A DNA stretch of 40,357 nucleotides from a virus. Taxonomy: Duplodnaviria; Heunggongvirae; Uroviricota; Caudoviricetes. Of this stretch, positions 1 to 37,207 are shown in pieces; the stretch's first letter is position 1; each line of letters opens with the position of its first letter. Under the pieces are notes generated by a model. That model did no database searches. It saw nothing but the letters and a program-made list of their open reading frames with translations, and had not been told where the DNA came from. The DNA is taken from IMG/VR virus record IMGVR_UViG_2740892106_000010; one strand, 5' to 3'. The translations under genes were made by a program, and so were the position numbers.

Positions 1-1251
1 GTGCTTACCGATACAAAATTAAAAAACCTCAAGCCGCAGGACAAACTGTACAAGGTCTCCGATCGTGACGGGCTGTATGTAGCTGTGCTTACGTCAGGCA
101 CGGTCTCGTTTCGCTATGACTACCGTATCAACGGTCGCCGCGAAACACTGGTAATCGGGCAGTATGGGCGTGACGGTATCAGCCTGGCAGAAGCGCGAGA
201 AGAACTGATTGCTGCAAAGAAGCTGCTTAAAGCAGGCCAGTCACCGGCTGCGGCTAAACGTGACGGTATCAAAAAGATTCGTGGTGCCGAGACGTTTGCG
301 GTACATACCGACAGTTATATGAAACATGTCATCCTGGCTGACAGTACCCGCGCAATGAAGCAGGTGGTGATCGACCGTGACATACTTCCGGTTCTTGGCA
401 ACAAAATGATGACTGAAATTACCACATCGATGGTTCGTGATTTGTGTGACCGGATTGTCGAACGCGGCGGCCGGGCAACAGCAGTGCAGGCCAGGGAGAT
501 CATCAGCAGCGTATACCGTCATGCCAATGACCGTGGTCATGGTTTGTTTAATCCTGCGGCTGACATTAAACCTTCGTCTATCGCCATATTTAAACCACGA
601 GAGCGAACACTGACACCAGAAGAAATTGGTCTGTTCTTCCGCACGCTGGATGCCATTGGTGCTATGGGCACTATGAAAATGGCTTTAAAGCTGGTGCTTA
701 TCACTATGGTTCGTAAAGGCGAATTCACCAATGCAACGTGGGATGAAATAGATTTTAAAAAATGGACATGGACAATTCCTTCAGACCGCATGAAGGGAAG
801 CCGGGCGCACGTTATTTACCTGCCTAAACAGGCACAGGATATATTGGTTGGGTTGCAGATGTGCGCTGGTGGAAGTGAATATCTGGTTCCTGGTCGTTAC
901 AATTTCCGGAAGCCATTATCTAATGCCGCGCTGAACTCTCTGATCGACAGAACGGTGAAAATAATAAATGAAGATGGTGAGCATATTCAGGGCTTCACCG
1001 TACACGATATGCGCCGTACAGCCAGTACGTTGTTGCATGAGGCTGGTTATCCTTCAGACTGGATTGAAAAGGCTCTGGCACATGAGCAGAAAGGTGTGCG
1101 CGCCGTATATAACAAAGCGGAATACGCCAGACAGCGCGCCTACATGTTGCAGCAGTGGGCCGATATGATTGATTCCTGGATTAACGGGGAGCATACGGAT
1201 CTGATTCCGTTCTCCCCGTCGAAGTTTGAGAAGTGGATGGCGGGGGAATAA
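1..1251 (+). CDS. int: Tyrosine recombinase (phage integrase); 5-prime end may be clipped by the window edge
   Basis: 416-aa ORF beginning with GTG at position 1; C-terminal catalytic region with HDMRRT and VRAVYNKAEY motifs typical of the R-H-R-Y tyrosine recombinase fold; N-terminal arm-binding-like region. Confidence 0.88.
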   Translation: MLTDTKLKNLKPQDKLYKVSDRDGLYVAVLTSGTVSFRYDYRINGRRETLVIGQYGRDGISLAEAREELIAAKKLLKAGQSPAAAKRDGIKKIRGAETFAVHTDSYMKHVILADSTRAMKQVVIDRDILPVLGNKMMTEITTSMVRDLCDRIVERGGRATAVQAREIISSVYRHANDRGHGLFNPAADIKPSSIAIFKPRERTLTPEEIGLFFRTLDAIGAMGTMKMALKLVLITMVRKGEFTNATWDEIDFKKWTWTIPSDRMKGSRAHVIYLPKQAQDILVGLQMCAGGSEYLVPGRYNFRKPLSNAALNSLIDRTVKIINEDGEHIQGFTVHDMRRTASTLLHEAGYPSDWIEKALAHEQKGVRAVYNKAEYARQRAYMLQQWADMIDSWINGEHTDLIPFSPSKFEKWMAGE

Positions 1252-1449: not shown

Positions 1450-2096
1450 GCAGCACGCTCCCGCCCCTGGTTGTCTGTTGGTGACAGCGGAGAATTGCTG
1501 AATGCATTTGTTAATCCGCCAATATCCAACGCGTATCCAGGGTGTAGTTGCACTGCCGAGTCTTCGCACTGATTACCCCAAACATCGAAGCCATGAGACG
1601 ACTGGCGGGCGAACAGTTCAATGCGAGAAACATCGCCTAACAATTGCACAAGTTTTTCACGAACGACATCTGGTTTTCTTGAGTGCTCAAGCCGCGGTGC
1701 GGTAAATGACTGAACGATCCCTGCATTAATGCGCGGAGGTAGTTTTCCCTTTACCGCAAACAGGCAATCTTCACTATTGGCGCGAGTCATGTGTCCCATA
1801 CCCATAACCAGTTTATCTGGTTGTCGACTACCACATTTTATCCACGTGAAGCCCTTCATGGTCATAAGACGAAATCCCCAGGCTTCAACAACTTTTAGTG
1901 CTTCGAGTGGTTGTGTTGGCACCCACCACATGGCCAACAGACAGTTTTCAGCGGCCAAATCCCACACAGGAAGGCGGCAGATATCCAGCACACTCATAAC
2001 TGGATATTTAAAACCGGCACCGCGATTACCATCTGCGGCTTTGTCCCGGTATACCCATGGTGGATCTGCATAGATTAGCGTGTATTTCTTAGTCAT
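1446..2096 (-). CDS. MT-A70 family DNA N6-adenine methyltransferase
   Basis: 216-aa ORF with the DPPW catalytic motif (LIYADPPWVY) near the N-terminus, as in phage Dam-like methylases. Confidence 0.85.
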   Translation of the reverse strand: MTKKYTLIYADPPWVYRDKAADGNRGAGFKYPVMSVLDICRLPVWDLAAENCLLAMWWVPTQPLEALKVVEAWGFRLMTMKGFTWIKCGSRQPDKLVMGMGHMTRANSEDCLFAVKGKLPPRINAGIVQSFTAPRLEHSRKPDVVREKLVQLLGDVSRIELFARQSSHGFDVWGNQCEDSAVQLHPGYALDIGGLTNAFSNSPLSPTDNQGRERAA

Positions 2097-5025: not shown

Positions 5026-5102
5026 TTACCGTTGAGGTAATAATTATGCGTATTTGGTTTGATGTCAATAGATATGAGTTAAAAAAATTACCCATTAGGT
5101 AA
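5026..5102. promoter_or_regulatory. Leftward early promoter bracketed by two TTACC-N5-GGTAA palindromes
   Basis: Perfect palindromes at 5026..5040 and 5088..5102; on the minus strand a consensus -35 TTGACA (plus coordinates 5063..5068) and a TAATTA/AATTAT -10 about 17 bp downstream, with the -10 abutting the 5026 palindrome. Confidence 0.55.
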
Positions 5103-5159: not shown

Positions 5160-5744
5160 TTATTGTTTGTTTTTTTCGTTCTGGTTGATGACAAATTCAA
5201 TGTAACTTTCGATCTTTGCTTTCTCGGTTTCGGGTAACAATGCGTAGCGCGAGCGGTCATAGTTGATGGTCGCAGGGTCGTGCGGGTGAATCAGTAATTC
5301 ATAGCCGTGACGCCCGAATGCTGATGCAACATTCTCCAGGGTGGAAATGGAAACACTGACCTCATTGTTTAACAGGCGGCTGATTGTCACCTGGGCGACG
5401 CCGGATGCGCGGTGAAGTTTTCCCTGAGTTGAAAGGTCGCGGCTTTCGCTCATCCAGCGTTCCAGGTTGTGAGCCGCCAGCTGACCAATGTCGCTTGGGC
5501 CGACAGGCTGAAAACCTTCCTGAGAAAGCGAGCGATCGATATCAAGCCAGTTACGTGGTTTATTGGCGGCAGCTTCAATTTTTCGCGCAACCTGGTCGCC
5601 GATAACCTTCTTGCCAAGAGCCCAGCGGTTTACCAGATTTGCCTGAGTTCCAAGTTTTTCTGCCATCCGCGTCTGAACACCATTGAATTCACGGTCGATC
5701 AAGTCGTTGAGATTTTGCCTGCGGACGTCCTGGATACTTTTCAT
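5160..5744 (-). CDS. Prophage repressor candidate with two helix-turn-helix (XRE-type) domains and no peptidase S24 domain
   Basis: 194-aa ORF; two HTH-like segments (QTRMAEKLGTQANLVNRWALGKK and VAQVTISRLLNNEVSVSISTLENVA); divergent from a cro-like gene with operator-like palindromes between them; no Ala-Gly/Ser-Lys autocleavage module evident. Confidence 0.7.
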   Translation of the reverse strand: MKSIQDVRRQNLNDLIDREFNGVQTRMAEKLGTQANLVNRWALGKKVIGDQVARKIEAAANKPRNWLDIDRSLSQEGFQPVGPSDIGQLAAHNLERWMSESRDLSTQGKLHRASGVAQVTISRLLNNEVSVSISTLENVASAFGRHGYELLIHPHDPATINYDRSRYALLPETEKAKIESYIEFVINQNEKNKQ

Positions 5745-26811: not shown

Positions 26812-28509
26812 ATGCCAATTTACACAGATGATCCGGGACAGGGAATTAACCAGCCAATTGGCAACGCGCCAGCAGGGCTTGGCGAATCGCTGCTTTCTTC
26901 CCTTAAGCAGGGATTTGAAGAGGGGCCGGTCATGTCCGGCTACCGCTTTGCGCAGGCCGACTCGCTGGCGAATGACCCAAACTCTACAGTTATCAGTAAG
27001 CAGGAAGCGGATGAGCTCCTGAAGCAGTACGGCGTAAAGAGCATAAACGTGCCAGATTCTGGCGTTACGCAGGCTTTTCTCGATCATGTTATTGCCGAAC
27101 GCAAAGATTCTCTGGCACGCCAGCAGATCGCGATGTCGGCACCGAGCGGATGGGTAGCCACGCCGCTTAATTTCGCAGCCAGCCTAGCTGGTTCAATGGC
27201 AGATCCTGGTAACGTGGCGCTGGCGCTGGTTCCGTTCGCTGGAGAAGCAAAGGCGGCTTCTGTGCTTGGCCGATTTGGCGAGCGATTTGTTGCTGGTGCA
27301 CGCATGGGGGCAGCGCAGGCGGTGGTGACCGTGCCGCTTACCGGGCTGGCAGCGGCGGCGGAAGGTGACGACTTCACCTATAGCAACGCGTTGGAAAGTA
27401 CTTTCTTTAACACGATGGCTGGCGGTCTAATGCATGCCGGCGGCGGCCTTATCGCCGATATCGTGCGACCGCGTCGCGTTCCCGATGCTGCAACGGGAGA
27501 GTCCCCGGCGTTTTCTGGCGATGCGCAGCCAACCCCGGTGATAACGCCTGACAACATTCCGGCGGGCGTGAATATCCCTGAGGTTGGCGCTAACGCAGAT
27601 CTGGCGGCGGCCATTTCCAGTGAAGCGGAGAGCTACGCATACAGCCGGGCTTATGACGACGTGGTTCCTGACTATATGGCGCGCCAGCAGGAATTACAGA
27701 GCGGTCAGATCGGTAACGTTGCCGACCTGCGTGCCGAGCTTGCGGCTAATCAACGTCATGCTGACTCGCTTGATGCGACGCTGCAGCAGCGCACCAAAAA
27801 GTATCAGGGGCAGCGGATGAAGTTTAAGGATGCGCGCTCTAGGGCACTGAAAGAGATTCAGGCCGAGAAAGACGCCATCGCTGCACGCAATCAGGAGATC
27901 AACACATCGCTGGAGCAGAACGCGACAGCAGAGCAGGCGCGCTGGCGCCAGTCTCAGATTTCCCGCGGTGAGATCCCAGACGACCTGAAAGTCACCATTT
28001 CCGAGCGTGCGCAGCAGATCCTGGACGGCATGCAGATGTCGCCGGTCGCTGGCGCAGTTCGCACTGCCGCAAGCGCCATCAGGGATGCTGACTGGAACGT
28101 GAACCAGCAGGCGTATCGCGCTGCGCTGGCACACATGATGGAAGGACGTAGCCCAGATGTTGAGCCCTTCTATGAACTGCACAAACCGGCACTGCGTGAA
28201 CGCGCCATCCATCGCATACAGAACCCGGCACGGCAGGTTGATGAAACGGCTCGCCCAGCAAGCGAAACAGCCGATCGGGTTTATCAAGAAACGCAAAAGG
28301 CAGATCATGAAATTACCGCTGCCGCTGCAGACCTTGATAACGAGCTCAACCTGAGTAACGCCCTGCTTGACGATATCGCTGTCGATAACCCTGATCTTGC
28401 GACCACGTTGCGCCAGAAACTCAATGATATTCGTGCCGACGCCAGCGACAATAGCATGAGCAACGCTTTCCGGGCATTTGCCGCCTGTATGATTAACCGG
28501 GGGATGTGA
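26812..28509 (+). CDS. Internal virion/ejection protein
   Basis: 565-aa ORF in the same array; Ala-rich with predicted coiled-coil segments. Confidence 0.55.
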   Translation: MPIYTDDPGQGINQPIGNAPAGLGESLLSSLKQGFEEGPVMSGYRFAQADSLANDPNSTVISKQEADELLKQYGVKSINVPDSGVTQAFLDHVIAERKDSLARQQIAMSAPSGWVATPLNFAASLAGSMADPGNVALALVPFAGEAKAASVLGRFGERFVAGARMGAAQAVVTVPLTGLAAAAEGDDFTYSNALESTFFNTMAGGLMHAGGGLIADIVRPRRVPDAATGESPAFSGDAQPTPVITPDNIPAGVNIPEVGANADLAAAISSEAESYAYSRAYDDVVPDYMARQQELQSGQIGNVADLRAELAANQRHADSLDATLQQRTKKYQGQRMKFKDARSRALKEIQAEKDAIAARNQEINTSLEQNATAEQARWRQSQISRGEIPDDLKVTISERAQQILDGMQMSPVAGAVRTAASAIRDADWNVNQQAYRAALAHMMEGRSPDVEPFYELHKPALRERAIHRIQNPARQVDETARPASETADRVYQETQKADHEITAAAADLDNELNLSNALLDDIAVDNPDLATTLRQKLNDIRADASDNSMSNAFRAFAACMINRGM

Positions 28510-31058
28510 TGGCAGCAAACGAATTTTTGACGCAGTGCGAGCGCAGTGTAAATGCTGCCGCTGGTCGCGAGCTTTCTTCCGATGAGATGGAGTCGCTGGT
28601 GCGTGACATGAACGACACCACTAGGCGAATTCTGGCGACCAATGAGGCGCTGTCTCTGGAAGAGGCCGCGATGCGCGCAGCGGAAGAACTGAGCAATGCC
28701 GATATGCTGGCAAAACAGATTGAGGCTCGCAATAAGGCAATCAACGCCCGTATTGCCGCACAACGACTTAGAGAGCTTCGTACTATCTGGAAAGACCGCC
28801 CGGATATCGGGCTTGAAGCAATGCTGGTTGGCCGCAACGATGCGCGTACCGGCGCCCGCCGGTCGGTATCTTCGGAGGTGGCGCAACTGCGCGGCAAGTA
28901 TCATTCCGGTATCAACTACGATTTTGACCGTGCCGGGCTGGTGCAATTCATCGCCAGCGGCAGCAATGACCGGGAAATTGCCGATGCAATGTGGCGCATA
29001 GGGCGCGGGCAGTCAACTGACGGTATGACAAAGCAATCCGTAAGCGCTGCACAAATCATCATGAAATGGCAGGAAACTGCGCGCATTGATGAGAACCGCG
29101 CCGGGGCATGGATACGCAAAGAGCCGGGCTATATAGTGCGCCAGTCACACGACATCATGAAGATCCGCGCCGCAGGTTATGAAGCATGGCGAAATGCTAT
29201 TCTCCCGCGCCTTGATGAGCGCACTTTTGACGGCGTGGCTGACCGCGAGCAGTTCACGCGTAACATTTATAACGGGCTGGCTTCCGGCGTGCATCTTACA
29301 TCTGAAAAGCCCGATTGGATGAATGGCTTTAAGGGATCGGCGAACGCAGCTAAACGCGCCAGCCAAGAGCGAATTTTGCACTTCAAAGATGGTATCTCGT
29401 GGCACGAGTACAACCAGCAATTCGGCACCGGCAGCCTGCGAGAAGCGCTGTTTGGTGGCTTAAACAGCGCTGCCCGCACAACGGGCATGATGCGCGTACT
29501 GGGCACTAACCCACAGAACATGTTTAAGTACCTGACGGACGCCATTGCTGAAGATATCAGCAAATCCGGAAGACCGGCAGCGTTGGCTGACTACATGACG
29601 AAGGTGCGTCGCATTAACCGTACCGTAATGCCGCAGGTTGACGGCTCGCTAAATATTCCTGGCAGCGTAGGCTGGGCCAATGCGTCGGCGGCTGTACGCG
29701 GCTGGTTGCGTATGAGCCAACTTGGTGGCGCGGTAATCTCATCGTTTAACGACGTGCCTATCGCCGCTACCGAGATGCGCTACCAAGGGCAGAATTTTAT
29801 GCAGGCGTTGCTTGGTGCTATGAGAGGCCGCTTCACGCGTTACAACAGCGCGGAGCAGAAAGAGATCCTTTCCTCTATCGGAGTTTATTCCGACTCCATG
29901 ACGCAGGAAATCATCCGGCGCATATCTGGTGATGACACGCTGAATGGAAAGCTTGGTCGCGCGCAGCAGCTTTTCTTTAAGTACAACCTCATGAACTTCT
30001 GGACCGAGAGCGGTCGCAACAGCAACGCCATGATGATAACCAACTGGCTTGCAAAGAATGCTGACCAGTCTCATGCGCGGCTACCGGAAGACCTGCGACG
30101 CGTGCTGGATCTGCACGGTATTGGCGAACGTGAGTGGGAAATTTTTCGCAACATGGACATGGCCGATAGCGAAGGTCGTAAGTTCATGACGACCAGCGGC
30201 ATCCGCGGCGTGCCTGACGAAGTGATTGCCGGTTATGTAGAGAGTAAGGGGATCAAACCAACGCAGCGCGCTATCGCTGACGCACGCGATCAATTGGAAG
30301 GGCAGTTGCGCGGCTACATCCTTGACCGCCTGAATATCGCCATGTCAGAGCCTGGCGATCGCACGCAGGCGTTTATGAAGATGGGCACGGTGCCAGGAAC
30401 GGTGGCTGGGGAAGCAATACGATTCGCTGGTCAGTACAAATCGTTCACTGCAAGCTTCATGCAGAACGTACTAGGACGCGAAGTATTCGGGCGTGGTTAT
30501 ATTCCTGCTGGGCTTGGTGAGTCGAAAACCGGATCGCTGACGAATGCGCTGCTACGTAACGGGAAGGGGGCTTTCCTTGGTGCTGCAAACCTCTTTGTCT
30601 GGGCGACTATGTTTGGTTATATCTCCATGCAGTCAAAACTCATGCTGAAAGGGCAAACACCACGCCCGGCAGATGCCAAGACGTTTCTCGCAGCCGCATC
30701 TCAGGGGGGCGGTCTTGGCATCTTGGGTGACTTCATGTTTGGCGAGGTCAACCGCATGGGGGCCGGGCCGGTTACGTCGCTAATGGGGCCAGCAGCATCG
30801 AACGCTGACAGCATTATCACGCTGCTCCAGCAGACCACGAGAGGGGATGCAGATTTGGGTGACTGGTATCGCACGGCACTTGACAATACGCCATTCCTCA
30901 ACGTGTTCTGGCTTCGTACGGCGATGAATGGTTTAATATTGAACCGGATACAAGATGCCCTTGACCCAGGCTCTCTTGAGCGTTATCAGCGCCGTGTTGA
31001 GCGTGAGCAGGGTAACGACTTTCTGATCCCACCATCGCAGTTCATGCTAGGTAAATAA
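28506..31058 (+). CDS. Large internal virion/ejection protein
   Basis: 850-aa ORF overlapping the upstream stop; last gene of the virion array before the moron island. Confidence 0.55.
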   Translation: MMAANEFLTQCERSVNAAAGRELSSDEMESLVRDMNDTTRRILATNEALSLEEAAMRAAEELSNADMLAKQIEARNKAINARIAAQRLRELRTIWKDRPDIGLEAMLVGRNDARTGARRSVSSEVAQLRGKYHSGINYDFDRAGLVQFIASGSNDREIADAMWRIGRGQSTDGMTKQSVSAAQIIMKWQETARIDENRAGAWIRKEPGYIVRQSHDIMKIRAAGYEAWRNAILPRLDERTFDGVADREQFTRNIYNGLASGVHLTSEKPDWMNGFKGSANAAKRASQERILHFKDGISWHEYNQQFGTGSLREALFGGLNSAARTTGMMRVLGTNPQNMFKYLTDAIAEDISKSGRPAALADYMTKVRRINRTVMPQVDGSLNIPGSVGWANASAAVRGWLRMSQLGGAVISSFNDVPIAATEMRYQGQNFMQALLGAMRGRFTRYNSAEQKEILSSIGVYSDSMTQEIIRRISGDDTLNGKLGRAQQLFFKYNLMNFWTESGRNSNAMMITNWLAKNADQSHARLPEDLRRVLDLHGIGEREWEIFRNMDMADSEGRKFMTTSGIRGVPDEVIAGYVESKGIKPTQRAIADARDQLEGQLRGYILDRLNIAMSEPGDRTQAFMKMGTVPGTVAGEAIRFAGQYKSFTASFMQNVLGREVFGRGYIPAGLGESKTGSLTNALLRNGKGAFLGAANLFVWATMFGYISMQSKLMLKGQTPRPADAKTFLAAASQGGGLGILGDFMFGEVNRMGAGPVTSLMGPAASNADSIITLLQQTTRGDADLGDWYRTALDNTPFLNVFWLRTAMNGLILNRIQDALDPGSLERYQRRVEREQGNDFLIPPSQFMLGK

Positions 31059-31060
31059 TA

Positions 31061-31621
31061 ATGAAGGCAATTATATTTTTTGTTTCAATATTGATGTCTG
31101 CATTTTCTTTTGCAGGGCAAAATGTTAAATGCGAACTTCAATACTTTGGAGATAGCGATAAATTTAAGGTAACTCAGTTTTCTTTTATGGGGATTCCATC
31201 TGATTCATACCTTTATACCTGTGCCGACTGTGGAGGCATCCAGATAAACGTGTTCCCATCTATTCAGACTGTTGCTTCCTACTCATTTGAAAACAACATT
31301 GATTTCGAAAGGAAAATCAATGCTGAATACAACAGAAAAGACATAGCTAAACTTGAGATGGAAAACGTTACTCAAGGCGGGAGAATAAAATATTCAATCA
31401 CCGATACTGGTTTGGCAGAGTTTTACCCAGAGGGCAAAAAGATAAGCTACCTCTACTTTTTAGCCAAGCAACAAAATGGTAAAGAACAAGTAGGTTATTC
31501 AGGATTTGTTACCTCTAACGGGGATAAGTCATGCTCAATTATTGCGACATATCCAGGAAAAGAAATTTCTTTTCTGGGAAGTAAATCTTTAAGCTACTTT
31601 ATGAATCATATATCAATGTAG
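31061..31621 (+). CDS. Secreted protein of unknown function (AT-rich moron)
   Basis: 186-aa ORF with N-terminal signal peptide (MKAIIFFVSILMSAFSFAGQ); markedly lower GC than flanking virion genes; followed by a strong terminator. Confidence 0.6.
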   Translation: MKAIIFFVSILMSAFSFAGQNVKCELQYFGDSDKFKVTQFSFMGIPSDSYLYTCADCGGIQINVFPSIQTVASYSFENNIDFERKINAEYNRKDIAKLEMENVTQGGRIKYSITDTGLAEFYPEGKKISYLYFLAKQQNGKEQVGYSGFVTSNGDKSCSIIATYPGKEISFLGSKSLSYFMNHISM

Positions 31622-31635
31622 TGTGACATGTCACA

Positions 31636-31660
31636 GGCCGCTTTCGCGGCCTTGTTTTTA
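31636..31660 (+). terminator. Rho-independent terminator
   Basis: Hairpin GGCCGC-tttc-GCGGCC followed by a T-rich run. Confidence 0.6.
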
Positions 31661-31819
31661 ACGAATGCCACCGCCGCCCGGACGGGAATCCGCAGAACGC
31701 CCACCGCAGCGGGAGCCGTCAGCAGCAGTGTCGCTGTCGTGCTGACAACGACCGGCAAAGGCCTGAGTTGAAGCTACCAGAGACAACAAAACGAACAGTG
31801 CAGCAAATGCTTTTTTCAT
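31658..31819 (-). CDS. Small secreted Cys-containing peptide (53 aa)
   Basis: Internal ATG of track ORF 31658..31924 giving MKKAFAALFVLLSLVASTQAFA signal peptide followed by a Cys/Gly/Asp-rich tail; weak RBS. Confidence 0.3.
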   Translation of the reverse strand: MKKAFAALFVLLSLVASTQAFAGRCQHDSDTAADGSRCGGRSADSRPGGGGIR

Positions 31820-31911
31820 TGTGAAATTTCCATCTATAAGCCACCTCAATGTGGCGTCAATGAGTGTAGCACTGACTTTTGTTTCGTCCACAAAAAAGCC
31901 CGCGCTGCGGG

Positions 31912-32457
31912 CTATTCCTTCCATTTATCAGAAAAAAGATCTTCTTCTAAAGGCATTGGTTCTGTTTTTGTTTTCTCAAAGAATTGATAACTGATAGTGA
32001 TTGCTGCCTCTTTAAACTCTTCTTGCTCAGTTATGTTGTGGGCATCTGCGTCAACAAAAAACATAACCAGCGCATCACGATTGTGATTTACCGAATAAAC
32101 TAAAAAGCAATCACTTGTTGGTATGCATTTTACTTGCACAGACGCTATATTTTTCCATGCATCCCAAGATGATTTTTTACCAGTGTGTTTTTTATCACTA
32201 TATTCTGGAATATAGTCTTGGTTATCGACATGAGTATGCCTGACATTTAGTTTAAGCATTTCTGTCGGACGAGCAAATGCAGCATCTTTACCAAGAGATG
32301 GATGGTATCCCGTTTTCCAATACTGGGTAAAGGCATCAGATACTTTCTTCAGCTCAAGATCAGATGCACAAAGGGCCGAGAAATTTTGCGTATGCAATAC
32401 TCGACCCTTATATCTGACAATTTGATTTTTATCATTCTGCGACGCAGACGAACTCAT
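31912..32457 (-). CDS. Hypothetical protein (AT-rich moron, 181 aa)
   Basis: ATG at 32457 with AAGGA RBS (track start 32484 is TTG); AT-rich; no recognisable motif. Confidence 0.5.
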   Translation of the reverse strand: MSSSASQNDKNQIVRYKGRVLHTQNFSALCASDLELKKVSDAFTQYWKTGYHPSLGKDAAFARPTEMLKLNVRHTHVDNQDYIPEYSDKKHTGKKSSWDAWKNIASVQVKCIPTSDCFLVYSVNHNRDALVMFFVDADAHNITEQEEFKEAAITISYQFFEKTKTEPMPLEEDLFSDKWKE

Positions 32458-32611
32458 AATTTTCCTTATTGTTACGAGAATCAAAGAAAGCGCGGGATAC
32501 GCGACTTGCGTGATCTTTTGTCATAGTAACTTTTACGTACTCTACGCTTCCATTGAAAGAACGTCTTGCGGCAGCTTGCGCTCTACGCATCTGCAATTTT
32601 TCGTTTCGCAT
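32432..32611 (-). CDS. Small basic protein (59 aa) overlapping the start of the downstream gene
   Basis: ORF below the track cut-off with GAGGT RBS; overlaps the 181-aa gene by about 26 nt in another frame. Confidence 0.25.
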   Translation of the reverse strand: MRNEKLQMRRAQAAARRSFNGSVEYVKVTMTKDHASRVSRAFFDSRNNKENYEFVCVAE

Positions 32612-32671
32612 GACATTACCTCATATCTCATAAGTTCATTACACGGATTAATAAAAATGAAACCAATCCGT

Positions 32672-32714
32672 TTACCCTTGAGGTAATAGTACGCTATTCA
32701 CCCACAGTCTGCAA
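32672..32714. promoter_or_regulatory. Leftward promoter with overlapping TTACC-N5-GGTAA palindrome
   Basis: Perfect palindrome at 32672..32686; on the minus strand TTGCAG (-35-like), a 17-bp spacer and TACTAT (-10-like) abutting the palindrome. Confidence 0.45.
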
Positions 32715-32758
32715 TCTGTACAGAATTATTTAAAGGCACATCCCTGTGCCGCCGCCCG

Positions 32759-33493
32759 TCAGAAGAACCCTGCCTTGTCGTTGATGTACTCCGCGTGCGT
32801 CTGGATATCACGCAGGCATTTGCTCACACCAACGATGTAGCAGAACATGGTGGTCAGCTCCGCCGCCGCGCCCGATACGTCGTGCCCGTCGTCCTGTAAC
32901 TGGTTCAGCAGATTCATCAGCAGTGAGTTCTCCGTCAGGCCGAGAACACCAGACGGAGAATGAATCAGACTGCGGTAGCCGGGCTTCAGTGGGGCACTGT
33001 ATTCTTTTTTGTCTTCCAGCTTGATCGCCTCCATAATGGCGGGCATGAATTTTTCAATTACCTGAGTGGCCTTTGATAAATCAGCTCCACCTGAGAGACG
33101 AACATCTCCGCTGACATTTGCGGGTTTTCTGTCGAAGTAGCAATCTTCCAGTTTTTCGAAGACCTCCCACGCTTTTTCAGTCTCAAGAATTTTCGCATGT
33201 CGTGCTGCACCGCGAGCGGTCCATAAGAAAAGATGACTTACTTTTGGTGCAATATTAAGCAAACCTCTTTGAGAGGACTCGTTCTTAAATGCTCGTAATT
33301 CTTCGCCTATCAGCTTGAAACAATGTTTTCCCTCAATGAATCGATCTGCATTTCGTTGATAGTTTTGACGAATCAGTTTGGGTTCTGTGTCATACAAATC
33401 AGCAAGCATTTCTGTAGTCATTACAGGGATGTTGCAATGAGTTGTTATCGGCAACTTATCAATAGCTATATTACGCATTTTCATTGCCTCCAT
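32759..33493 (-). CDS. Antirepressor-like protein (ORF6N/Rha-type N-terminal domain plus C-terminal domain)
   Basis: 244-aa ORF; N-terminal region (IPVMTTEMLADLYDTEPKLIRQNYQRNADRFIEGKHCFKL) resembles ORF6N/Rha antirepressor domains; C-terminal about 70 aa is paralogous to the small protein encoded at 34292..34549. Confidence 0.65.
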   Translation of the reverse strand: MEAMKMRNIAIDKLPITTHCNIPVMTTEMLADLYDTEPKLIRQNYQRNADRFIEGKHCFKLIGEELRAFKNESSQRGLLNIAPKVSHLFLWTARGAARHAKILETEKAWEVFEKLEDCYFDRKPANVSGDVRLSGGADLSKATQVIEKFMPAIMEAIKLEDKKEYSAPLKPGYRSLIHSPSGVLGLTENSLLMNLLNQLQDDGHDVSGAAAELTTMFCYIVGVSKCLRDIQTHAEYINDKAGFF

Positions 33494-33977
33494 CTTTCAC
33501 GACGAAATAGCAATTATCTTTATAATCTAACTGGATGAACTTTATGTTTTCAGGGAGTTTTACAGAAAGAGTTTTTGCACAAGCAAAACCAAAATCTGCG
33601 CCAGAAGCATCCATATACCTTAATAATTGTTTTAATGCTGAAGGAGAAAAAGTATCTACCTTCACCTCAACAGGGTAACCATCTTTTGTTTTTAGGTCTG
33701 GTTGACCTGGTCCACCAAGTATTTCAGCGTTAAGGTATTTTGCTATTTCTGGATAAGCGTTGTATTCAGAGCGTAGTTTTGCCTTGTTATCGACTGCTAG
33801 TTGCATAAGATGATCAAACAAATTGGTATCTAAATCTGCCCCTTCATCCCACATTCTATTTCTACAGCTAATCAATTCACTGACCAGTGGTGCACTTTCT
33901 TGCCTTAGCATAAGAAGGAGTGGAGAATTAGAAATTAACCAATACAGATCGTCGTTTGAGATTTTTTGGCCTGGCAT
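33471..33977 (-). CDS. Hypothetical protein with PD-(D/E)XK-like motif
   Basis: 168-aa AT-rich ORF with GAGG RBS; D-x(n)-EVK motif (DGYPVEVKVD); overlaps the start of the Ant-like gene. Confidence 0.45.
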   Translation of the reverse strand: MPGQKISNDDLYWLISNSPLLLMLRQESAPLVSELISCRNRMWDEGADLDTNLFDHLMQLAVDNKAKLRSEYNAYPEIAKYLNAEILGGPGQPDLKTKDGYPVEVKVDTFSPSALKQLLRYMDASGADFGFACAKTLSVKLPENIKFIQLDYKDNCYFVVKDGGNENA

Positions 33978-34132
33978 AGCGATACCTCTACTAGTAAGTT
34001 ACCCACCACCGCAACGCCAATTGCTGGTGGTGAACTGGACAAGGTTGGCGTACCGGCCTAGTAGGTACCGGCGCACCTTTCGGTGCCCCTGCCCAGCCCA
34101 CCATAATTCGGATATGACTGTGCTATACGCAT

Positions 34133-34154
34133 AAAAAAACCACGTCTGGCGTGG
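34133..34154 (-). terminator. Rho-independent terminator (minus strand)
   Basis: Hairpin CCACG-ccaga-CGTGG followed on the minus strand by TTTTTTT. Confidence 0.55.
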
Positions 34155-34245
34155 TATGCGCCTACTAGTAATCCGGGACGCCAATCCCGGCACTGGATTT
34201 TGCCAGTGCCCGATTACTATGGCACAAGAGGAGTGCGATGTAAAT

Positions 34246-34288
34246 TTACCGCAAAGGTAAATATAAGCACTCCATTTGGTAATTGCAA
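34246..34288. promoter_or_regulatory. Leftward sigma70-like promoter with overlapping TTACC-N5-GGTAA palindrome
   Basis: On the minus strand: -35 TTGCAA (34283..34288), 16-bp spacer, -10 TTATAT (34261..34266), then the perfect palindrome TTACCgcaaaGGTAA (34246..34260) over the predicted start site. Confidence 0.45.
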
Positions 34289-34291
34289 ACC

Positions 34292-34549
34292 TTATCTGGT
34301 TTGTTTTCGTAATTGTTCGGCACAATAGTCGAGATGTGTTTGCAGATCCTGCATAGACATCTGTGAGCTGGTGACGTAGTTAATCAGTGCAGTCAGTTCG
34401 GCAAGTGGGCCATCGACATTAAATCCATCCTTATCGAGATCCCGGAGTAATTTCATCAAGTGCGATCCCTCCACCAGTGACCTGACGCCTCCCGGCGTGT
34501 GAATCCTTTCGGTAAATCCGTCTTCCAGTGGATAGTGATACTGCTGCAT
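34292..34549 (-). CDS. SOS-regulated small protein (85 aa), paralog of the Ant-like C-terminal domain; antirepressor candidate
   Basis: ATG at 34549 with GGAG RBS (track start 34567 is TTG); near-consensus LexA box 22 bp upstream; alignable by eye to residues about 170-240 of the protein encoded at 32759..33493. Confidence 0.55.
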   Translation of the reverse strand: MQQYHYPLEDGFTERIHTPGGVRSLVEGSHLMKLLRDLDKDGFNVDGPLAELTALINYVTSSQMSMQDLQTHLDYCAEQLRKQTR

Positions 34550-34570
34550 CTTATCTTCTCCATGCAATAA

Positions 34571-34586
34571 CTGTATAAATATACAG
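34571..34586. promoter_or_regulatory. LexA (SOS) box
   Basis: aaCTGTATAAATATACAGta matches the CTGT-N8-ACAG consensus with an AT-rich spacer (one spacer deviation from TACTGTATATATATACAGTA). Confidence 0.8.
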
Positions 34587-34624
34587 TATCAAATAATTTG
34601 TTTGCTATCCAGCACGTTTTGCAA

Positions 34625-34689
34625 ATTACCTGAAAGGTAATATCTATTCATATTCACAGTCTTTCTATCCATATGTGGTTTTTCAGGTA
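34625..34689. promoter_or_regulatory. Divergent regulatory region upstream of the tailspike gene
   Basis: Perfect palindrome TTACCtgaaaGGTAA at 34625..34639 followed about 32 bp later by ATGTGGTTtttcaGGTAA (34672..34689); on the minus strand a TTGCAA -35-like hexamer abuts the palindrome and leads into the LexA box. Confidence 0.5.
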
Positions 34690-34744
34690 ATAGAATAACC
34701 AGATATGCGGCGCAACGGGTGCTGCGACTATCTGGAGATTTAAC

Positions 34745-37207
34745 ATGACGGTCTCAACAGAAGTTGACCACAACGAATACACAGGTAACGGCGTTACGAC
34801 ATCATTTCCGTATACCTTCCGTATTTTCAAAAAATCCGACCTGGTTGTTCAGGTGTCTGACCTTAACGGTAACGTTACAGAACTAGTGCTGGATGCTGGT
34901 TATACGGTAACAGGGGCGGGAACTTATAGTGGCGGTGCAGTGGTTCTTCCGTCGCCGCTTGCTGCTGGCTGGCGAATCACGATAGAGCGTGTGCTTGATG
35001 TGGTGCAGGAGACTGATCTTCGCAATCAGGGAAAATTTTTCCCCGAAGTTCATGAGGATGCATTTGACTACCTGACGATGCTGATCCAGCGATGTTTTGG
35101 GTGGTTCAGACGTGCATTGATGAAACCATCTTTGCTTGCAAAATATTACGATGCAAAGCAAAACAGAATATCTAACCTTGCAGATCCATCATTTGAGCAG
35201 GACGCTGTAAATAATCGCTCAATGCGCAATTATGTCGATGCTGCAATCGCCGGGGTTGTTGGTGGTTTTGGTTGGTTTATTCAGTATGGTTCTGGAGCGG
35301 TATACAGAACACTCCAGGATAAGATGCGTGATGGTGTCAGCATTAAGGATTTTGGAGCTCAAAATGGAATCTTAAATGATAACAAGGAGGCTTTTACAAA
35401 ATCATTACATTCGTTTAGCAGTGTTTTTGTTCCGGAAGGGGTATTCAATACATCTTTAGTTTCTCTTTCACGTTGTGGCTTGTACGGAACAGGTGGGGGA
35501 ACGATAAAACAGTATGACAGAGATGGTAATCATCTGGTTTTTAACATGCCCGATGGTGGCATGCTTAGTACGCTAACAATTATGGGAAATAAATCAGATG
35601 ATAGTGTGCAGGGACACCAGGTGTCATTTTCAGGTGGCCATGATGTATCGGTTAAAAATATCAGATTTACAAATACGCGAGGACCAGGATTTAGCTTGAT
35701 CGCTTATCCGAATAATGGTATTCCGTCAGGTTACATTGTTAGAGATATAAGAGGAGAGTATTTAGGGTTCGCAAATAATAAAAAAGCAGGTTGTGTGCTT
35801 TTTGATTCATCGCAAAACACGCTAATTGATGGTGTGATAGCCAGAAATTATCCTCAGTTTGGTGCAGTGGAACTTAAAACAGCAGCAAAATATAACATTG
35901 TCAGCAATGTTATTGGTGAAGAGTGTCAGCACGTTGTTTACAATGGAACTGAGACGGAAACTGCCCCAACGAATAATATCATTAGCAGTGTAATGGCTAA
36001 CAACCCAAAATACGCCGCAGTAGTTGTTGGCAAGGGGACTGGTAACCTGATTTCGGATGTGCTGGTTGATTACTCTGAATCGGACGCAAAGCAGGCGCAC
36101 GGCGTCACCGTTCAGGGAAATAATAATATTGCCAGTAATATTCTAATGACTGGGTGTGATGGGAAAAATGAATCAGGAGATCTGCAGAAATCTACAACCA
36201 TTCGTTTCTTAAATGCTGCAGGCAGTAATTATGCGTCAATATTCCCCATGTATAGTTCTTCTGGCGTGGTTACCTTCGAGGAAGGGTGTATCAGGAACTT
36301 TGTTGAAATTAAACATCCGGGTGATAGAAATAATATTCTGAGTTCTGCATCAGCGGTGACTGGTATTTCCAGTATAGACGGCACTACAAATAGCAATGTT
36401 GTTCATGTCCCTGCTCTTGGTCAGTACATTGGGACTATGTCAGGGCGTTTTGAATGGTGGGTTAAATATTTTAACCTTGCTAACCAGACGCTTGTTTCTG
36501 CAGATAAATTCAGAATGCTTGCTGAAGGCGATGTATCTCTGGCTGTGGGAGGCGGTATAAGTTCGCAATTGAAATTATTCAATAGTGATAATACTAAAGG
36601 CACTATGTCGCTAATAAATGGAAATATTCGAATATCTACTGGAAATTCAGAATATATACAGTTTTCTGATTCAGCCATGACACCATCGACAACGAATACT
36701 TATTCTCTTGGGTTGGCTGGTCGTGCATGGTCGGGGGGATTTACCCAGTCAGCATTTACGGTGCTGTCCGATGCGCGTTTCAAGACTGCTCCAGAGGTTA
36801 TTGATGAGAAAATACTGGACGCATGGGAAAGAGTGGAATGGGTTTCATACCAGTACCTTGACAGGATCGAAGTGAAAGGTAAAGACGGAGCAAGATGGCA
36901 CTTTGGTGCAGTTGCGCAGCATGTTATCAGTGTATTTCAGAATGAAGGCATAGATGTGTCACGACTGGCATTTATCTGTTATGACAAGTGGAATGAGACC
37001 CCGGCAGAATACAGGGATGTGACGGAAGAAGAGCATTCTGCAGGAGTTTACCCACTTATACAGACAAAGGTTCTGGTACGCGAAGCCGTCGAGGCTGGTG
37101 AATGTTACGGTATCCGTTATGAAGAGGCTCTGATTCTGGAATCTGCGATGATGAGACGCAGGGTTAAAAAGCTGGAAGAGCAAGTTTTGCAATTAACAGG
37201 GAATTGA
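34745..37207 (+). CDS. Tailspike/tail fiber with beta-helix-like central region and C-terminal intramolecular-chaperone-like domain
   Basis: 820-aa ORF; conserved podovirus-type N-terminal adaptor region (YTGNGVTTSFPYTF); Asn/Gly/Ser-rich repetitive middle; C-terminal GARWHFGAVAQHVISVF...RLAF motif like peptidase S74 chaperone domains (recalled). Confidence 0.75.
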   Translation: MTVSTEVDHNEYTGNGVTTSFPYTFRIFKKSDLVVQVSDLNGNVTELVLDAGYTVTGAGTYSGGAVVLPSPLAAGWRITIERVLDVVQETDLRNQGKFFPEVHEDAFDYLTMLIQRCFGWFRRALMKPSLLAKYYDAKQNRISNLADPSFEQDAVNNRSMRNYVDAAIAGVVGGFGWFIQYGSGAVYRTLQDKMRDGVSIKDFGAQNGILNDNKEAFTKSLHSFSSVFVPEGVFNTSLVSLSRCGLYGTGGGTIKQYDRDGNHLVFNMPDGGMLSTLTIMGNKSDDSVQGHQVSFSGGHDVSVKNIRFTNTRGPGFSLIAYPNNGIPSGYIVRDIRGEYLGFANNKKAGCVLFDSSQNTLIDGVIARNYPQFGAVELKTAAKYNIVSNVIGEECQHVVYNGTETETAPTNNIISSVMANNPKYAAVVVGKGTGNLISDVLVDYSESDAKQAHGVTVQGNNNIASNILMTGCDGKNESGDLQKSTTIRFLNAAGSNYASIFPMYSSSGVVTFEEGCIRNFVEIKHPGDRNNILSSASAVTGISSIDGTTNSNVVHVPALGQYIGTMSGRFEWWVKYFNLANQTLVSADKFRMLAEGDVSLAVGGGISSQLKLFNSDNTKGTMSLINGNIRISTGNSEYIQFSDSAMTPSTTNTYSLGLAGRAWSGGFTQSAFTVLSDARFKTAPEVIDEKILDAWERVEWVSYQYLDRIEVKGKDGARWHFGAVAQHVISVFQNEGIDVSRLAFICYDKWNETPAEYRDVTEEEHSAGVYPLIQTKVLVREAVEAGECYGIRYEEALILESAMMRRRVKKLEEQVLQLTGN

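Follow-up and report, generated by a model that had tools for sequence, protein, structure and literature searches.

What does a pair of small overlapping genes do in the stretch between the virion genes and the tailspike gene of a prophage? The question is raised by the viral record IMGVR_UViG_2740892106_000010, a stretch of 40,357 nucleotides (the window in what follows) that amounts to an essentially complete epsilon15/phiV10-like (Uetakevirus-type) prophage of Escherichia coli. At positions 31,912 to 32,611, a gene for a protein of 181 amino acids (aa) is preceded on the same strand by an overlapping open reading frame (ORF) for a basic protein of 59 aa, both located where an earlier note on the sequence had placed them. 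That note had left it undecided whether this layout was that of toxin-antitoxin, abortive-infection or superinfection-exclusion cargo. The analysis points to the first of these: the module is probably a type II toxin-antitoxin-type pair, in which an mRNA endoribonuclease of the YafO/RelE kind would be sequestered by the co-translated 59-aa protein and transcription would be set by the prophage repressor. The two genes are the following.

31912..32457, minus strand: gene of the 181-aa long-form YafO-family toxin, with a RelE/HigB (BECR) fold, a candidate mRNA endoribonuclease
32432..32611, minus strand: gene of the 59-aa basic partner, a candidate antitoxin, PHROG 6685

The larger protein, in which the earlier note had seen no recognisable motif, does carry one: it matches the Pfam family PF13957 (YafO_toxin) with 26.1 bits and E = 9.6e-6, the gathering cutoff of the family being 25 bits, and the match places residues 46-148 on profile positions 3-88 of 101. 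The scores of two diverged homologues are similar (24.7 bits for L003 and 26.6 bits for L051), and Pfam gives the 181-aa protein no match to the HigB or RelE families. In RefSeq, the Prokaryotic Genome Annotation Pipeline (PGAP) names it 'type II toxin-antitoxin system YafO family toxin' in phage TL-2011b and in the listed E. coli genomes, and in PHROGs it belongs to phrog_1651, to which no function is assigned there. Because the Pfam score is marginal and the direct comparison with YafO of E. coli K-12 is insignificant, family membership was examined further. An exhaustive profile search over 1.84 billion representative proteins retrieved only 70 clusters, which form an unbroken size range from forms of 165-200 aa down to YafO-sized proteins of 130-150 aa. 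PF13957 is matched by 38 of 59 of these toxin clusters, with a best value of 1e-39, and none of the 59 matches another family. A scan of the genome contigs gave no confirmed relative. When the family is aligned with K-12 YafO, G56 and H76 are invariant, F43, D58, P64, S115, Y121 and H140 are nearly so, and the motifs G-[KR]-D, H-x-H and T-[SN]-D..L-[VI]-Y and a late His are common to both. With 181 aa, the protein exceeds the single-domain size of about 130 residues that characterises YafO. The additional residues, when compared with short YafO proteins, are found in an extension at the N-terminus, an insert (around 80-112) of about 30 residues that includes Trp, and a C-terminal PMPL..DLFSDKW tail, all of which are common to a long subfamily of 165-200 aa.

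Structure prediction, which had been suggested for the 181-aa protein, yielded a confident model with a RelE/HigB (BECR) fold. AlphaFold2 supplied with 73 diverse sequences reached a predicted local distance difference test (pLDDT) of 91.7 and a predicted template modelling score (pTM) of 0.87; with 24 close homologues, the pLDDT was 53 and the model unusable. In the confident model, two helices at the N-terminus lead into a four-stranded sheet, after which comes a long C-terminal helix. This corresponds to the BECR fold, in which N-terminal helices pack against an antiparallel sheet and a C-terminal helix comes last; the insert and the terminal extensions, which short YafO proteins lack, are added to it. 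The conserved set of His, Asp, Tyr and Arg residues is retained. A Foldseek search of the PDB ranked RelE-type toxins at the top, yet with E-values that were all insignificant; the nearest folds were HigB2 of Vibrio cholerae and HigB1 of Mycobacterium tuberculosis, which are ribosome-dependent mRNases of the RelE superfamily and share a sequence identity of only 8-9% with the protein. Nothing meaningful came from a search of the viral folds in BFVD with the toxin model, and a sequence search of the PDB with the toxin found no structure of the YafO family. The PF13957 match, the continuum of clusters, the shared motifs and the model together therefore place the protein in the YafO branch of the RelE/ParE (BECR) superfamily, as one of its long-form members. 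YafO has been classified as a toxin of the BECR fold whose gene follows that of its antitoxin (PMC11980606), and YafO of E. coli cleaves mRNA in a translation-dependent manner and blocks translation (PMC2814082). By analogy, the 181-aa protein would most likely cleave mRNA as well and so arrest translation.

If this is the toxin, the candidate for its antitoxin is the 59-aa protein. That this ORF might have arisen by chance in AT-rich DNA, with nothing but a leader ahead of the toxin gene, is an idea that its lack of annotation in RefSeq E. coli genomes and the abundance of short ORFs in the program-made ORF list could suggest, but which can be regarded as effectively refuted. In all 50 of the 50 related loci, the toxin gene is preceded by a small ORF that overlaps its start. 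Over codons 1-50, and thus outside the overlap with the toxin gene, the ratio of nonsynonymous to synonymous substitutions (dN/dS) comes to 0.17-0.36 when the ORF is read in its own frame, against about 0.8-4.2 for the other two. Frame and length are retained in thirteen protein clusters from Salmonella, Lelliottia, Hafnia and others, which are 75-97% identical and, except for two, 59 aa long; the Shine-Dalgarno sequence and the ATG are conserved; and PHROGs holds the protein as a family, phrog_6685, with no function assigned there. In addition, the identities of partner and toxin co-vary across loci (r = 0.91). On this evidence of conservation, the 59-aa ORF is taken as a genuine gene, co-inherited with that of the toxin, and the toxin-antitoxin interpretation of the layout is borne out to that extent.

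The partner family comprises 38 clusters in all, in which every member named by its source is a 'hypothetical protein'. Homologous partners also precede more distant toxins: one of 84 aa in an Arsenophonus prophage (toxin about 34% identical), one of 53 aa next to the methylase of a type I restriction-modification (R-M) system (toxin about 29% identical) and one of 55 aa in the viral contig L051 (toxin 44% identical). In a siphovirus tail module, a 63-aa partner occupies the equivalent position but is only 12-14% identical, the toxin being about 46-48% identical. The deepest conservation in the partner is found in a beta-strand-like VKVTMT segment and a helix and, above all, in a C-terminal ...NYEF(V)... 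motif. The toxin N-terminus, which the overlap DNA encodes, is predicted to be disordered, from which we infer that selection on the overlap acts on the tail of the partner, and that this tail would be what contacts the toxin. No similarity was found between the partner and the 97-aa antitoxin YafN, and, as far as sequence comparison reaches, it is a member of no described antitoxin family. Its omission from annotation has a practical effect. PGAP annotates the YafO-family toxin and leaves the 59-aa partner uncalled in NZ_CP091665.1 (L002 5547..5848) and in other E. coli genomes, so that the toxin looks like an orphan in RefSeq E. coli genomes; the RefSeq record of phage TL-2011b does call the partner (gp45). 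Two further small genes were seen beside other YafO relatives: in L063, a 65-aa partner (1813..2010) overlaps the start of a short 134-aa relative and, in L064, a 57-aa partner (700..873) ends 77 nt upstream of a 180-aa relative. Neither has a Pfam match on record, and antitoxins of the YafN type may therefore be the exception within PF13957.

The signals around the two genes were next to be accounted for, and they are listed here in the order of the window.

31897..31913, minus strand: intrinsic terminator AGCCCGC-AGC-GCGGGCT followed by TTTTTTG, overlapping the stop codon of the large ORF (terminator scan and fold)
32463..32467, minus strand: Shine-Dalgarno sequence AAGGA, which belongs to the toxin gene and falls within the coding part of the small ORF (read from the sequence)
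32618..32622, minus strand: Shine-Dalgarno sequence GAGGT of the small ORF, in a block GAGGTnATGTC-ATG that is conserved in the alignment
32672..32686, no strand assigned: operator palindrome TTACC-TCAAG-GGTAA (TTACC-N5-GGTAA) over the -10/+1 region of the module promoter
32686..32714, minus strand: candidate promoter of the sigma-70 type, with -35 TTGCAG (32714-32709), a 17-nt spacer and -10 TACTAT (32691-32686), as read from the sequence
32735..32750, minus strand: hairpin GGCACA-GGGA-TGTGCC after the stop codon of the antirepressor gene (fold of -10.1 kcal/mol)

The end of the 59-aa ORF overlaps the start of the 181-aa ORF by 26 nt in a different frame. The latter is taken to begin at the ATG at 32457-32455. 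The program-made list extends it to a TTG at 32484 (190 aa); the ATG was preferred, as it is the start used in RefSeq and as MSS... is also how distant homologues without the extension begin. The terminator at the downstream end folds with -13.7 kcal/mol (z = -2.3). At the other end, the hairpin that follows the antirepressor gene sets the module apart from the antirepressor operon, and its stem is retained through paired changes in homologues, for example as GGCGC...GCGCC in L035, L042 and L043. The terminator, this hairpin and a promoter of their own make the two genes a separate transcription unit. The bracket from promoter to terminator encloses only the toxin gene and the small ORF, and no second antitoxin candidate was found inside it. 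The two genes are adjacent, co-oriented, coupled by overlap in one unit and inherited together in all the related loci, which is one of the general features of type II toxin-antitoxin systems.

How this unit would be controlled is suggested by the palindrome. The promoter scan does not list the module promoter, whose -35 is too weak in the window. The earlier description of a promoter with its -10 abutting a palindrome holds as a consensus reading, as 8 diverged homologous loci retain a -35 of the form TTGnnn (TTGACG or TTGCAA), a spacer of 17-18 nt, a -10 TAATAT and the palindrome. In the window, palindrome and -10 overlap by one base. TTACC-N5-GGTAA does not change among 9 diverged loci, and indels alter its spacing from the start codon in the homologues, a pattern that fits a promoter whose -10/+1 region carries an operator. 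The palindrome is thus present at the module promoter, as had been noted, but it is not specific to the module, since it is one of ten copies spread over the phage. The exact 15-mer occurs at 5026, 5088, 5800, 8087, 8149, 12070, 15215, 32672, 34246 and 34626, and 30 sites with at most 2 mismatches are observed in the window when 1.8 are expected. Because 9-10 of the 10 copies are intergenic, the palindrome is to be seen as a phage-wide operator and not as one private to the module. Copies flank the gene of a 194-aa protein with two helix-turn-helix (HTH) motifs (5160..5744), a homologue of the putative phiV10/epsilon15 repressor, and others lie ahead of the cro-like, replication, terminase, portal, tailspike and antirepressor units. 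Palindromes occur at equivalent places in phiV10, and in phiv142-3 one copy belongs to the unrelated mini-cassette that is found there in place of the module. At the early promoters the palindromes are paired, 47-62 bp apart, whereas the module has a single isolated operator. Taken together, the palindromes look like one type of operator by which the entire phage genome is controlled, and on this distribution the palindrome would be the operator of the main repressor of the phage. A 17-bp hyphenated inverted repeat, ATTACC...GGTAAT, is reportedly described at promoters in the epsilon15 genome paper; it was not used as evidence.

Three other interpretations of the region upstream of the small ORF were considered and given up. 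The palindrome was rejected as an RNA hairpin, as its fold is weak (-5.3 kcal/mol, z = -1.4) and the sequence itself, and not just its pairing, is conserved genome-wide. The module leader also contains a lineage-specific insertion of about 27 nt with a 10-nt inverted repeat, TAAACGGATT / AATCCGTGTA (32640..32674). Together with a window-specific promoter TTGGTT-17-TGTAAT, this repeat might have served the toxin-antitoxin pair as an operator of its own, an idea that was rejected since none of the diverged homologues has the insertion. Finally, a translational switch in which ATTACCTCA (32687-32679) would pair with the Shine-Dalgarno region TGAGGTAAT (32623-32615) was set aside because its 5′ arm is the operator, located at the predicted start site or upstream of it, and because indels change the distance to the Shine-Dalgarno sequence.

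The distribution of the module shows it as cargo. Its region is 99% identical to phage TL-2011b and 100% identical to a prophage in E. coli KOr019. It lies immediately downstream of the antirepressor operon, in the AT-rich stretch that extends from the last virion/ejection gene (28506..31058) to the tailspike gene (34745..37207). Its GC content is 0.393, that of the window 0.495 and that of the structural block 0.528, which agrees with the earlier description of an AT-rich island between structural modules. The module is absent from phiV10, and two tiny ORFs take its place in phiv142-3. Of 5426 complete E. coli genomes, 61 have the full module and 174 match at least part of the queried stretch. 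Relatives were found in prophages of Salmonella, Hafnia, Serratia, Klebsiella and others, and the module also occurs in other phage architectures and beside an R-M system. By this pattern of presence and absence the module is accessory cargo, carried in the variable region that separates the virion/ejection genes from that of the tailspike.

The mechanism that would follow for a type II-like pair starts with a single transcript from the sigma-70 promoter, the -10/+1 region of which is covered by TTACC-N5-GGTAA. The transcript would give the 59-aa basic protein first and the 181-aa long-form YafO-family protein second. The latter, with its RelE/HigB fold, would cleave mRNA and arrest translation, and the 59-aa protein would bind and neutralise it, probably through the conserved C-terminal ...NYEF... 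motif. Since the partner has no recognisable DNA-binding domain, the control of transcription has apparently been handed to the two-HTH prophage repressor. Possible roles are a benefit to prophage or host through growth arrest on derepression, exclusion or stabilisation. A number of points speak against this interpretation. The score of the 181-aa protein barely exceeds the Pfam cutoff (26.1 vs 25), BLASTP finds no match between it and K-12 YafO, and hhalign against the single K-12 YafO sequence gives a weak result (E = 0.006, probability 6%); moreover, the enzymology of YafO itself is disputed, notably its ribosome dependence (PMC8546651). The charge pattern is odd for a type II pair, the partner having a pI of 10.0 (12 K+R vs 7 D+E) and the toxin one of 6.2. 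Pfam, NCBIfam, PADLOC and PDB give the partner no match, and sequence searches of Pfam, NCBIfam and the PDB detected neither an antitoxin domain nor a DNA-binding domain in it. As the sole conserved operator at the module promoter is the phage-wide palindrome, classical autoregulation by the antitoxin is not supported, and the cassette may be silent or repressed in the lysogen. The analysis shows that both genes are real, which family and fold the toxin has, that the pair is inherited together, where the operon is bounded and how the operator is spread over the phage. The RNase activity, the neutralisation by the small protein, the binding of the repressor and the biological role are what we infer. 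A quite improbable alternative that draws on the same points is that the partner is not an antitoxin but a separate regulator, or an RNA- or DNA-binding protein with an arginine-rich N-terminal helix, and that the YafO-like protein is an orphan or domesticated RNase kept under control by other means. A basic partner beside a mildly acidic toxin would fit it, as would the missing similarity to YafN or to any antitoxin family, the treatment of the toxin as an orphan by PGAP and the listing of a 'Toxin YafO' without antitoxin in Pseudomonas aeruginosa prophages (PMC10449497). It is opposed by the strict adjacency and overlap in 50 of 50 loci, by the small upstream partners that remote relatives also possess and by the co-divergence of the two proteins. 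The part of the partner that is conserved most deeply is, besides, its C-terminal NYEF motif and not its basic N-terminus, and the unit from promoter to terminator offers no other candidate for an antitoxin.

The operator invites a different alternative, which leaves the biochemistry of the pair unchanged and concerns the purpose that it serves. A cassette belonging to the repressor regulon, silent in the lysogen, could be a device of the lytic cycle and not an addiction or defence module that the lysogen expresses, with the 59-aa protein as a new antitoxin family that has ceded transcriptional control; put this way, the proposal is a possible but doubtful one. In its more specific form, which is rather unlikely, the operator keeps the cassette off in the lysogen and lets it fire only after infection or induction, so that the RNase serves the phage in host mRNA shut-off, anti-defence or commitment to lysis, and the small protein acts as its timer or inhibitor. 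The operator over the -10/+1 region of the module promoter is invariant in diverged phages, which argues for such a role, as do the copies that flank the two-HTH repressor gene and precede early, replication, terminase, portal, tailspike and antirepressor units, and the operator carried by the replacement cassette of phiv142-3. Neither protein has a match in PADLOC-DB 2.0 at E <= 0.1, and the absence of similarity to known defence systems is also consistent with it. Against this, the binding of the repressor to the palindrome is itself deduced, and one isolated operator stands here where early promoters have pairs, so that repression could be leaky. Outside epsilon15-like phages the same gene pair is found without the operator, for example in the siphovirus tail module and beside the R-M system, which fits an autonomous selfish or defensive cassette; and the module is dispensable for this type of phage, as phiV10 and phiv142-3 show. 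The toxin-antitoxin reading, with the partner as the neutraliser and the prophage repressor as the transcriptional control, is the one that we favour.

Comparison with known systems places the pair close to several of them without equating it with any. With YafN-YafO of E. coli K-12, it shares the toxin family (by the PF13957 profile and the common motifs), the order of antitoxin before toxin and their tight coupling (PMC11980606), and an expected cleavage of mRNA that would block translation (PMC2814082). It differs in that the toxin has 181 aa, instead of the 132 aa of K-12 YafO, with the extension, the insert and the tail; in that its partner, a basic protein of 59 aa, is not related to the 97-aa YafN and so is no antitoxin of the YafN type; and in that it is borne by a prophage behind a phage operator, whereas the K-12 genes lie in the dinB-yafNOP operon. 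In higBA loci, the toxin gene precedes that of an antitoxin with an HTH domain (PMC11980606); here, the order is the reverse and the partner has no HTH. PaaR2-PaaA2-ParE2 of the cryptic prophage CP-933P in E. coli O157:H7 also combines a toxin of the RelE/ParE superfamily with a non-regulating antitoxin of about 60 aa, and is likewise expressed within a prophage network of the CI/Cro type (PMC8630535). Its toxin is nevertheless of the ParE type, which acts on gyrase and is not an RNase, and its CI-like regulator is co-transcribed in the immunity region, whereas the cassette described here contains no regulator gene. As the promoter of the module carries the operator of the main repressor, its wiring is predicted to be opposite to that of paaR2-paaA2-parE2, namely off in the presence of the repressor. 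Phage T4 RegB is a sequence-specific endoribonuclease that is said to be structurally related to RelE/YoeB. As a lead only, it would be an earlier case of a RelE-like RNase put to use by a phage in lytic growth, with the differences that RegB has no partner protein and T4 is a virulent phage.

The surroundings of the module include other elements of note. On the terminator side, the AT-rich cargo continues with a gene on the plus strand for a 186-aa protein with a signal-peptide-like N-terminal segment (31061..31621; phrog_11983) and a gene on the minus strand for a 54-aa membrane protein (31658..31822; phrog_14503, moron category); the latter is present in phiV10 and phiv142-3, both of which lack the module. 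On the promoter side lies the gene of a 244-aa antirepressor of the ORF6N type (32759..33493, minus strand). Its start is overlapped by 23 nt by a 168-aa ORF (33471..33977, minus strand; phrog_18738), which has no Pfam or PADLOC match, occupies the position of icd in P1 immI and contains a D...EVK stretch that, by eye only, recalls PD-(D/E)xK nucleases. Between these two genes and the operator at 34246, Rfam identifies in tandem, on the minus strand, a C4 antisense RNA (RF01695, 76.7 bits; 34023..34108) and an isrK Hfq-binding RNA (RF01394, 68.1 bits; 34133..34209). On these matches, the tandem C4/isrK arrangement is an antirepressor control region like those of P1 immI and Gifsy-1 isrK, directly upstream of the module. 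A 91-aa ORF (34292..34567, minus strand) repeats, as a free-standing copy, the C-terminal domain of the antirepressor, with which it shares matches to phrog_450 and phrog_15539; it has its own divergent promoter region with an operator (34626), common to the tailspike gene. A gene for tRNA-Arg (anticodon TCT) lies between the terminase and portal regions (14816..14892, minus strand). No tandem repeats were found in 31000-35000, and no Rfam families inside the module.

The toxin family was already annotated in RefSeq. What is new is the conserved and unannotated partner family, the long-form subfamily with its confident HigB-like model and the link to an operator that is phage-wide. These findings turn the annotation of an 'orphan' YafO-family toxin into that of a complete two-gene system, and draw attention to a small gene that PGAP systematically misses. 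They define a long-form YafO subfamily with a confident HigB2-like model and, beside it, a family of tiny partners, in 38 clusters, without a described domain. If the operator wiring is true, the module would be a clean example of a toxin-antitoxin cassette placed under the repressor of its host phage and not under its own antitoxin, which would bear on the purpose of the toxin-antitoxin modules that prophages carry.

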